In this document: piece after piece, positions 16,061 through 16,813 of the stretch
Position numbering within the stretch: position 1 is the stretch's first letter
Layout of the letters: each line of letters begins with the position of its first letter
Assembly (NCBI GenBank): GCA_049972095.1
Contig: JBMFKQ010000033.1
Location: 1-16,813 of the forward strand
Direction: 5' to 3'
DNA length: 16,813 bases
DNA from: Elusimicrobiales bacterium
Lineage (GTDB): Bacteria > Elusimicrobiota > Elusimicrobia > Elusimicrobiales > UBA9959
Program-made: the position numbers and the translations under genes
The notes under the pieces: model-generated
Databases searched by the model: none
Seen by the model: only the letters and a program-made list of their open reading frames with translations
Told to the model about the DNA's origin: nothing

Positions 16061-16149
16061 AATTAAATTTTGAAAATCTTAAAATCTTTTATTCAAAGGA
16101 GCTTGCCACTTTTAAATCCACATAAGGAAATAAAAATCCTTTTGGAGTT

Positions 16150-16169
16150 TGAGGGGCATAGCCCTCTCA
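16150..16169 (+). other. GC-rich hairpin downstream of rmuC (terminator-like or REP-like)
   Basis: TGAGGGGC-ATA-GCCCTCTCA with one bulged base; no clean U-tract follows. Confidence 0.4.
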
Positions 16170-16217
16170 CTTAGTATCATTAATAAGCCTTAACAAACTA
16201 ATGATTTAGCTGTCTAA

Positions 16218-16290
16218 TCCAATATTCAACATCTAACATTCAAAATTTAACATCATCTTACTTTTCACCTTTCTCCTTTTATCTTTCATC
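16218..16290 (+). repeat. Degenerate heptamer array, copy 2
   Basis: tccaata ttcaaca tctaaca ttcaaaa tttaaca (16218-16252), then tcttact tttcacc tttctcc ttttatc tttcatc (16256-16290). Confidence 0.7.
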
Positions 16291-16345
16291 AATTAAAATC
16301 AGATAAAACTTATAAAATTTGTAAAATTAAATTTATCCATTTCTG

Positions 16346-16432
16346 GGAGGGATGGCTGAGCGGTTGAAAGCGCCGGTCTCGAAAACCGGTGTCCGAGTAA
16401 TCGGACCGTGGGTTCGAATCCCACTCCCTCCG
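16346..16432 (+). tRNA. tRNA-Ser(CGA), 3' CCA not encoded
   Basis: Acceptor GGAGGGA/TCCCTCC with discriminator G; anticodon stem CCGGT/ACCGG, loop CTCGAAA (CGA at 16380-16382); long variable arm GTCCGA-GTAA-TCGGAC; T-arm GTGGG-TTCGAAT-CCCAC. Confidence 0.97.
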
Positions 16433-16433
16433 T

Positions 16434-16549
16434 GCTTTGCTGAGAAATGCGAAAGCATTTCGTGGGATTCGAAAAGCCCTCAAGCAAAACATATGCAATT
16501 CAGTTTTGCGAGGGGGGACTTGCGAAAAATTTTGCGGTGAGCAAAGTTT
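16434..16549 (+). ncRNA. Putative structured tRNA-trailer element with an anti-T-arm segment
   Basis: Hairpins at 16444-16461, 16477-16514 and 16527-16549; 16462-16473 is the reverse complement of tRNA 16413-16424. Confidence 0.5.
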
Positions 16550-16595
16550 ATAATTCAAAATTTAAAATTTCACCTCTCACCTTTCACGTTTCAAA
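16547..16595 (+). repeat. Degenerate heptamer array, copy 3
   Basis: tttataa ttcaaaa tttaaaa tttcacc tctcacc tttcacg tttcaaa, all in phase. Confidence 0.7.
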
Positions 16596-16635
16596 TATTC
16601 TCATTTGATTCGCATTTATTTGCCAATTCTTTAAA

Positions 16636-16683
16636 TGATATAATAGATATTACAACAGTTTCAGTTATACAAGGTTAAGGAGG
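16636..16683 (+). promoter_or_regulatory. Extended -10 promoter and strong SD for the last ORF
   Basis: TGATATAAT (16636-16644); TAAGGAGG (16676-16683), 5 nt before the ATG. Confidence 0.6.
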
Positions 16684-16688
16684 CAAGT

Positions 16689-16813
16689 ATGTCAACATTT
16701 GAATGGATAGCTTTTTTTGCTATAGCGTCTGCTATGGTAAATGGAACGGGTATTTATATGGTTTACAAGGCAAAGAATTTAGTTTATAAATTTAAAAACT
16801 ATTTTTTGTGTTT
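16689..16813 (+). CDS. Partial (5' end) membrane protein, possibly a ZIP-family metal transporter
   Basis: Not in the ORF track. Reads MSTFEWIAFFAIASAMVNGTGIYMVYKAKNLVYKFKNYFLC and stays open to the window edge; TM1, basic loop and start of TM2 resemble ZIP N-termini. The CDS is well supported, the family is tentative. Confidence 0.55.
   Translation, partial: MSTFEWIAFFAIASAMVNGTGIYMVYKAKNLVYKFKNYFLC

Follow-up and report, generated by a model that had tools for sequence, protein, structure and literature searches.

A probable RtT-like tRNA-linked repeat, truncated at its 3' end, behind a tRNA-Ser gene of an Elusimicrobiales bacterium

Introduction

What is the compact, hairpin-rich block that directly follows the tRNA-Ser(CGA) gene in a contig of an Elusimicrobiales bacterium, and with what does its perfect complement to the T arm of that same tRNA pair? 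The window, by which we mean the whole 16,813-nt stretch of DNA analysed (contig JBMFKQ010000033.1), had received a first-pass annotation that raised both questions. It described the hairpins and the antisense segment, considered the block to be neither a simple terminator nor an att direct repeat, proposed either a cis switch acting on the T arm of the tRNA precursor or a small element that targets tRNA genes, and could assign it to no named family. Here, we compare the block with its copies in the same genome, in related genomes and in distant phyla.

Results and discussion

A structured block begins one base past the tRNA-Ser(CGA) gene

All features of the locus lie on the plus strand. The host gene, which does not encode CCA, occupies 16346..16432 (ARAGORN; Rfam RF00005, 63.4 bits), and its T loop and the 3' strand of its T stem (positions 54-65, TTCGAATCCCAC) fall at 16413..16424 by sequence and tRNA alignment. 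A single unit is present, beginning at 16433, one base past the gene and on the same strand. Comparison of copies identifies the linker or trailer TGCTTTGCTGA (16433..16443), which is of the TGCTTTNCTAAG type, as the semi-conserved start of the unit. Hairpin H1 follows (16444..16461, GAAATGC-GAAA-GCATTTC), with a 7-bp stem and a GAAA loop that are evident from the sequence, the copy comparison and folding; the stem is maintained among copies while its sequence varies, and in another subfamily 18 of the 20 units have one of 9-12 bp. The next element, the anti-T segment GTGGGATTCGAA (16462..16473), is an exact 12-nt reverse complement of TTCGAATCCCAC (16413-16424), as the first-pass annotation had it. 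Sequence, covariation and folding define helix P2 together with the variable hairpin H2 (16477..16514, CCCTC-AA-GCAAAAC...GTTTTGC-GAGGG, bulged), and alignment with intact copies places helix P3 at 16519..16551 in incomplete form, with its 5' strand, GGTGA loop and inner 3' strand present. The local hairpin AAATTTTGC-GGTGA-GCAAAGTTT (16527..16549) can, like the other hairpins and the anti-T of the annotation, be read directly from the sequence.

Folded as RNA, the block (16433-16560) has a predicted free energy of -40.5 kcal/mol (z = -3.6), which none of 200 shuffled sequences equalled. That it is no plain terminator was borne out, with zero terminator-like sites (GC-rich hairpin plus T run) on either strand of 16100-16813. 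It also matches no Rfam family: the window and eight complete-unit loci returned only tRNA at both gathering and permissive thresholds. The annotation had further suggested that the 3' GCAAAGT segment pairs alternatively with GCTTTGC (16434-16440), giving two mutually exclusive folds. This pairing is present in the window copy, but the trailers of other copies (TGCTGGTGCT, GCTTTTCT) cannot form it; the second fold is not conserved, and judged from these sequences the pairing looks accidental.

Copies of the block follow other tRNA genes

The window's genome comprises 1.44 Mb in 58 contigs with 34% G+C, and the sequencing runs that contain the window stretch are labelled hot-spring metagenomes. 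BLAST with the block yielded eight matches in this genome, every one directly 3' of a tRNA gene and on its strand, at seven different tRNA genes among the genome's 42. The copies lie behind Ser-CGA (the window), Ser-GGA (99% identical, at a contig end), Arg-GCG (two tandem units) and Gly-UCC, with partial copies behind Asn (3' part only), Ser-UGA and Gly-CCC (a 5' stub each). Among relatives, ARAGORN found a tRNA at 28 of 30 loci, and at one of the two tRNA-less loci the cognate tRNA lies 2.2 kb upstream. The expectation that copies would follow other tRNAs was therefore confirmed both in the genome itself (8/8) and in relatives (28/30).

Two subfamilies can be told apart in this genome (G000). 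One (contigs C33, C26 and C4) has GGGATTCGAA and the trailer TGCTTTGCT and lies behind Ser tRNAs with the T loop TTCGAAT; the other (contigs C21, C9 and C15) has GGGAATCGAA and the trailer TGCTGGTGCT and lies behind Arg/Gly tRNAs with the T loop TTCGATT. A search for an autonomous parent element at the truncated copies of tRNA-Ser(TGA) and tRNA-Gly(CCC) came upon ordinary genes and no further second tRNA end, and this candidate was rejected.

Complete units end in a direct copy of the host tRNA's 3' end

Intact units share one order: the tRNA, a trailer (of the TGCTTTNCTAAG type, or a terminator in some genera), H1, CG plus the anti-T, GAAAG, P2, GCGG and P3. A single base separates P3 from a direct repeat of the tRNA's 3' part, which begins at T-loop position 57, runs to the discriminator and takes in CCA where the host tRNA encodes it. 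The anti-T of such units forms the 5' strand of a closing helix, P1, and leads into an invariant GAA(A)G junction; P2 is closed by YCC.C / G.GGR around the variable hairpin H2, and P3 is a long hairpin. By exact search, the terminal copy was full-length (17-19 nt), exact and at a fixed offset in 27 of 40 units; it reached at least 14 nt in 5 further units, and the other 8 lack it, 3 of these being mis-hits to a nested element.

Past the terminal copy, the trailer and H1 of the locus recur, or in other genera the terminator, so that the true layout is one of tandem units of which the last is cut. Arrays are seen directly, with two units behind the tRNA-Arg of this genome and up to 2-3 in relatives.

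Two variations on this anatomy were noted. At the tRNA-Tyr loci of one genus (L154-L165), the H1 loop and its surroundings (CCAACTGCTTGG) are strongly conserved across tRNAs while the outer stem varies. At five loci of relatives (L009:1630-1990, L012, L024, L026 and L030), the anti-T is split precisely after CGTGGG by a further GC-rich module, ~135 nt long and present once or as two tandem copies. This module contributes a hairpin and paired flanks (GGACAGC/GCTGTCC) of its own as well as a core resembling P2/P3, and in the units it interrupts the remaining anti-T stops tracking the host tRNA.

Measured against intact units, the window copy is missing its end. The P3 outer closing strand is gone past ~16551, where the family match stops, and the P3 closing strand and 17-nt tRNA 3' copy expected at 16552..16583 are replaced by unrelated AT-rich DNA, which indicates that the unit is truncated or decayed. 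No second tRNA-Ser(CGA) 3' end was found near the copy with up to 3 mismatches allowed; a candidate decayed copy at ~16566-16582, agreeing by eye at 9 of 17 positions, was rejected. Covariance model R1 scored the window copy (16457-16583) at 61.8 bits, whereas the genome's other copies reached 91-133 bits. The window copy is probably a relic. Since it lacks the terminal tRNA copy, its anti-T has no partner within the unit. The annotation's statement that the block is no att direct repeat does not extend to the family: complete members end in a direct tRNA 3' copy, which the window's copy has lost.

Three covarying helices form a junction closed by the anti-T

The structure was assessed on 37 aligned units and three helices, with P1 defined as the anti-T plus the first 8 nt of the terminal copy. 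Standard pairs filled 91.5% of cells compared with 78.8% in shuffled alignments, a value attained by none of 500 shuffles, although related sequences inflate such shuffle statistics. Both sides vary at 24 of the 36 pairs across the 37 units, and sliding the partners lowered pairing to 39-52%. P1 was paired in 90.5% of cells, with double changes at 5 of its 8 pairs, and P2 showed double changes at 7 of 11 pairs, including columns 24/64, which are U-A in 21 and C-G in 16 of the 37 units. All three helices, P1, P2 and P3, covary. G-U occupies columns 74/105 in 33 of 37 units, and such pairs assign the structure to the tRNA-sense strand. Free-energy folding of complete units, unaided, returned the same three-way junction (z = -6.6 and -4.8). 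In P1, the anti-T and the initial 7-9 nt of the terminal copy are paired, which closes the three-way junction.

The anti-T also tracks the host tRNA, as the first-pass annotation had anticipated. Over positions 57-65, the anti-T matched its own tRNA at a mean of 7.1 of 9 positions (40 units) compared with 5.5 for 1530 non-cognate pairs, and none of 10,000 permutations attained the observed mean. Examples of T-loop sequence and anti-T are TTCGAGTCCC and GGGACTCGAA for Leu-GAG, TTCAATTCCC and GGGAATTGAA for Pro-GGG, TTCAAATCCC and GGGATTTGAA for Asp, and TTCGAGTCCT and AGGACTCGAA for Trp. The terminal copy repeats the sequence of the host tRNA, and this accounts for the co-variation of the anti-T with that tRNA.

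The family shares the architecture of E. coli tRNA-linked repeats

E. coli K-12 has 22 tRNA-linked repeats (TLRs) at ten loci, whose 3' end is the last 18-19 bp of the upstream gene (PMC8144298). First described in 1978, these repeats had "no known function" as of 2021, with the exception of three TLRs behind 5S rRNA that bind Hfq and CsrA in vitro (PMC8144298). In our searches, the Rfam RtT model (RF00391) recovered 18 of the 22 E. coli TLRs. The closing helix of the RtT consensus joins an internal GgGaaGGAU to AUCCuuCcC of the terminal tRNA copy, and inspection of 16 E. coli units by eye showed an internal segment that differs according to host tRNA among those of Tyr, Pro, Ser and Arg.

The likeness to E. 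coli TLRs and RtT (the RtT/RttR of the tyrT-tyrV operon) is one of design. Both kinds of unit immediately follow a tRNA (or 5S rRNA) gene and share its strand, and both occur alone or as short tandem arrays. In both, a complete unit finishes with a copy of the final 17-19 nt of the gene upstream, after which the trailer or terminator is repeated, and a segment inside the unit closes the structure by pairing with this terminal copy. The 3' end that marks the TLR class is present, exact over 17-19 nt, in 27 of 40 units of the family, while the truncated window copy is without it. The differences lie in the core, which in Elusimicrobiota and CPR bacteria is a three-way junction with GAAAG, GCAG/CGAG and GCGG junctions, and in the closing helix, which starts at T-loop position 57 compared with position 59 in RtT. 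The hosts also differ, being Elusimicrobiota and CPR bacteria here, and the window's subfamily starts at the discriminator with no terminator between tRNA and unit. RF00391 gave no match at E <= 10 in window positions 16250-16700, nor at E <= 1 in eight complete-unit loci, and model R1 run with filters off against E. coli TLRs at 7 loci gave none either. Since homology to RtT is undetectable, the link to E. coli TLRs is architectural only. The annotation's verdict that no named family applies nevertheless needs amending, because the architecture is that of E. coli tRNA-linked repeats and RtT.

We read the block as a 3'-truncated member of RtT-like tRNA-linked repeats, belonging to an uncatalogued sequence family, widespread in Elusimicrobiota and present in some CPR bacteria, in which the anti-T and the terminal copy form P1, and we put the probability of this reading at roughly 0.6; the processing and spread that go with it are what we infer. 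The unit would be a passenger RNA of the tRNA transcription unit, and tRNA 3'-trimming enzymes would set and stabilise the ends of the unit RNA. The recurrence of the TLR design in distant phyla, with an unrelated but strongly covarying core and one helix adapted to each host tRNA, shows that it is not an enterobacterial oddity. Either the design is functional, or it lets non-coding DNA colonise tRNA loci efficiently, and the family supplies many natural variants of the tRNA-specific helix for testing what purpose that helix has.

Spread of units between tRNA loci

Cores cluster by genome rather than by tRNA. In one MAG, tRNA-Leu(CAG) and tRNA-Glu(TTC) are followed by units with identical cores but with terminal copies that each fit their own tRNA, and where identical cores occur at different tRNAs the match often reaches position 63 only. 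The orthologous tRNA-Tyr locus of one genus, followed through 12 genomes, is filled in 7 (1-2 units), reduced to a stub in 2 and empty in 3. At one further locus (L085:1-2460), a 2.2-kb insert lies between a tRNA-Ser(CGA) gene with encoded CCA and its element plus tRNA copy. The insert holds a small HTH-like ORF, an N6/N4 DNA methylase (PF01555, E = 3.4e-24) and a 274-aa ORF that has no match in Pfam, and it is possibly a restriction-modification cassette carried as cargo.

Several of these observations would be expected of a non-autonomous mobile element whose anti-T guides insertion to matching T loops and whose tRNA copy is the target duplication: identical cores frequently match only up to position 63, the tRNA-Tyr locus is filled, stub or empty depending on the genome, and one unit carries 2.2 kb of cargo that includes a DNA methylase. 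Such guidance would also suit the occurrence of copies at at least 20 different tRNA species, the confinement of each subfamily in the window's genome to tRNAs that share one T-loop heptamer (Ser versus Arg/Gly), and the sharing of the family, with cores 70-80% similar, between two distant phyla. However, the machinery for mobilisation was not apparent. PF07282 (TnpB), PF01548 (IS110) and PF00078 (reverse transcriptase) were each absent from all 5 genomes searched, which are incomplete to varying degrees (91-100% complete); PF00589 (Phage_integrase) identified only two Xer-sized (~300-aa) tyrosine recombinases per genome in the same 5 genomes, and none of these genomes has an integrase beside any unit. 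Nor do the units look like MITEs, as their ends are not inverted repeats and the repeated flank is not fixed but ranges from 17 nt to >45 nt. The duplicated flank extends to varying points in the trailer, H1 or terminator of the locus, and such end points fit tandem units with a cut last unit better than target duplication. We consider guided insertion unlikely, and hold the same doubt about its broadest form, in which the units are gene-less, self-targeting mobile RNA/DNA elements with the anti-T as guide and a tRNA-like 3' tag for copying or processing by host enzymes, and the E. coli TLRs are a second branch of an ancient class of tRNA-gene parasites.

The genome-wise clustering of cores, the states of the tRNA-Tyr locus and the lack of matches to mobilising enzymes in the five genomes searched instead favour tandem amplification combined with exchange at the T loop. 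Under the tRNA-linked repeat reading, units would multiply in tandem by unequal crossover, and they may pass from one tRNA locus to another through recombination or template switching within the T-loop sequence that the loci share.

The terminal copy as the favoured partner of the anti-T

Since the tRNA and the terminal copy are identical in sequence, the covariation of P1 cannot by itself name the partner of the anti-T. The first proposal for this locus had been a cis switch: in the precursor, the anti-T would invade the T arm of its tRNA and thereby govern how the tRNA folds or how its 3' end is processed. Two features of the window copy agree with it: complementarity is perfect over 12 nt, and the tRNA itself is the sole possible partner left. 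The GAA that always follows the anti-T points the same way, as it faces TTC (54-56), which is available in the tRNA alone and absent from the terminal copy. In addition, units of the window's subfamily begin directly past the discriminator, with no intervening terminator, and would thus be co-transcribed with the tRNA.

Four lines of evidence from the wider family speak for the terminal copy. P1 formed with the copy explains the same covariation and is preferred by folding. In decayed units (L145, L153, L140 and L147), the first 6-7 nt of the copy, the P1 strand, have been kept while its tail has diverged. A terminator often stands between the tRNA and the element in many genomes, among them those of another Elusimicrobiota family, CPR bacteria and E. 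coli. The GA(A/G)AA junction is retained where pairing with the T loop is impossible, as in E. coli RtT and at L070. Taken together, the decayed units, the intervening terminators and the retained junction favour the terminal copy as the partner. An essential tRNA would, moreover, suffer from unfolding of its T arm. A cis switch is therefore quite improbable, the conserved and covarying partner of the anti-T being the downstream tRNA copy.

A local hairpin between the anti-T and the GCCCGC that follows it was also considered and rejected: it is impossible with other T stems (GAGAGAGTCGAA in L060), and column 24 covaries with column 64.

Possible resemblance of the unit ends to a tRNA

Some RNAs borrow tRNA processing through tRNA-like structures, as in the tRNA-like domain of tmRNA and the 3' tRNA-like ends of some other RNAs. 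Part of the family may do something similar. One genus has tRNA-Tyr units in which the segment preceding H1 (GGTGGTAGGAA) equals the 5' acceptor strand of the tRNA, the complement of its 3' end. Across 20 units of that subfamily, the longest run of complementarity between the pre-H1 segment and the acceptor 3' strand averaged 5.45, compared with 3.78 for 344 non-cognate pairs, and 0 of 5000 permutations attained the observed mean. The mimic measures 8-11 nt in some units and 2-4 nt in 9 of the 20, and it is absent in the window's subfamily. In the units that have it, P1 and the copied 5' acceptor strand before H1 would imitate the acceptor/T-arm half of a tRNA: the pre-H1 segment, H1, the anti-T and the terminal copy would stack as an acceptor/T-stem, leaving the discriminator (and CCA, where encoded) free, and this stack would be the portion of a tRNA that 3'-end enzymes recognise. 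As in tmRNA-type structures, a 5' segment and the 3' end would form a helix that bears the acceptor 3' strand, the discriminator and sometimes CCA; unlike in those, a three-way junction stands in place of the T loop, the acceptor helix occurs in some units only, and the mimicry is putative.

The same features could be those of a degenerate tRNA paralogue, laid out as 5' acceptor strand, H1, 5' T-stem strand, inserted core, positions 57-76 and terminator, and acting as a tRNA-like decoy or tag towards, for instance, enzymes or toxins that bind tRNA. An acceptor-strand copy of up to 11 nt precedes H1 in several units, the 3' part is identical to that of the tRNA, including CCA where encoded, and the unit then has its own copy of the terminator. 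Its core, however, is homologous across tRNA identities and phyla and so was not derived from each local tRNA; the acceptor mimic is missing from about half of the units as well as from the window's subfamily, and neither ARAGORN nor the Rfam tRNA model recognises the units. We give a paralogue origin little credence.

Known integrative elements use the part of tRNA genes from the T loop to the 3' end as att site, and a direct repeat over this interval is the usual footprint of tyrosine-integrase integrations. Such elements resemble the units in that a tRNA 3' direct repeat flanks the insert and the tRNA gene stays intact. They differ in that the unit is only ~120 nt long, has no integrase and recurs with the same body at many tRNAs, each with its own repeat, and in that its conserved features are base-paired helices, not protein-binding arms. 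That the units are residues of larger elements integrated by a tyrosine integrase at such a site is very improbable, for although the direct repeat runs from the T loop to the tRNA 3' end and one unit surrounds a 2.2-kb island, no integrase adjoins a unit in the five genomes searched, which have only two Xer-like genes each, the ~120-nt body recurs across tRNAs and genomes with compensatory changes, unlike random deletion scars, and the repeat fits each different tRNA, which would be beyond the reach of one integrase.

Distribution of the family

BLAST detected the family in 4 of 41 related genomes, the window's included, with ~20 copies in each of two. Model R1 found units in 44 of 151 Elusimicrobiota genomes, and 34 of 45 genomes were positive in one Elusimicrobiota family of small genomes. 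A BLAST query taken from one genus matched in at least 28 of its 31 genomes, often several times and in tandem. Scanning one genome per species for the exact motif yielded 54 stretches. The stretches preceded by a tRNA came from Elusimicrobiota MAGs, two Saccharibacteria, one Minisyncoccia and one other bacterium; one orphan unit lay in a Nomurabacteria MAG, and the remaining stretches look like chance matches in GC-rich genomes. R1 scored the CPR units at 62-88 bits, and cores are 70-80% similar between the two distant phyla. In total, copies adjoin at least 20 different tRNA species.

A full-text literature search for units in Elusimicrobia or CPR bacteria retrieved only papers on E. coli TLRs. 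Copies of the unit terminate contigs, and DNA contigs from two runs are fragmented, breaking in the repeat; because it breaks assemblies at tRNA loci, the family is worth cataloguing.

The diversity of the superfamily exceeds what model R1 captures. Behind tRNA-Ser(UGA) in three other genera, in genomes negative by BLAST (L105, L110 and L111), a hairpin is followed by GGGATTCGAA and by other or longer cores, and one of these loci has a near-perfect tRNA 3' copy ~300 nt downstream. In the window's own genome, tRNA-Ala(GGC) is accompanied by a different, AT-rich tandem repeat with units of ~222 bp (G000 contig C4:71046-71603 and the end of C21). Each of its units terminates in 35 nt copied from the 3' part of the tRNA and contains GACCTTACC, which is complementary to the first bases of the copy. 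The repeat appears to be a second TLR-like family that is closed in the same way.
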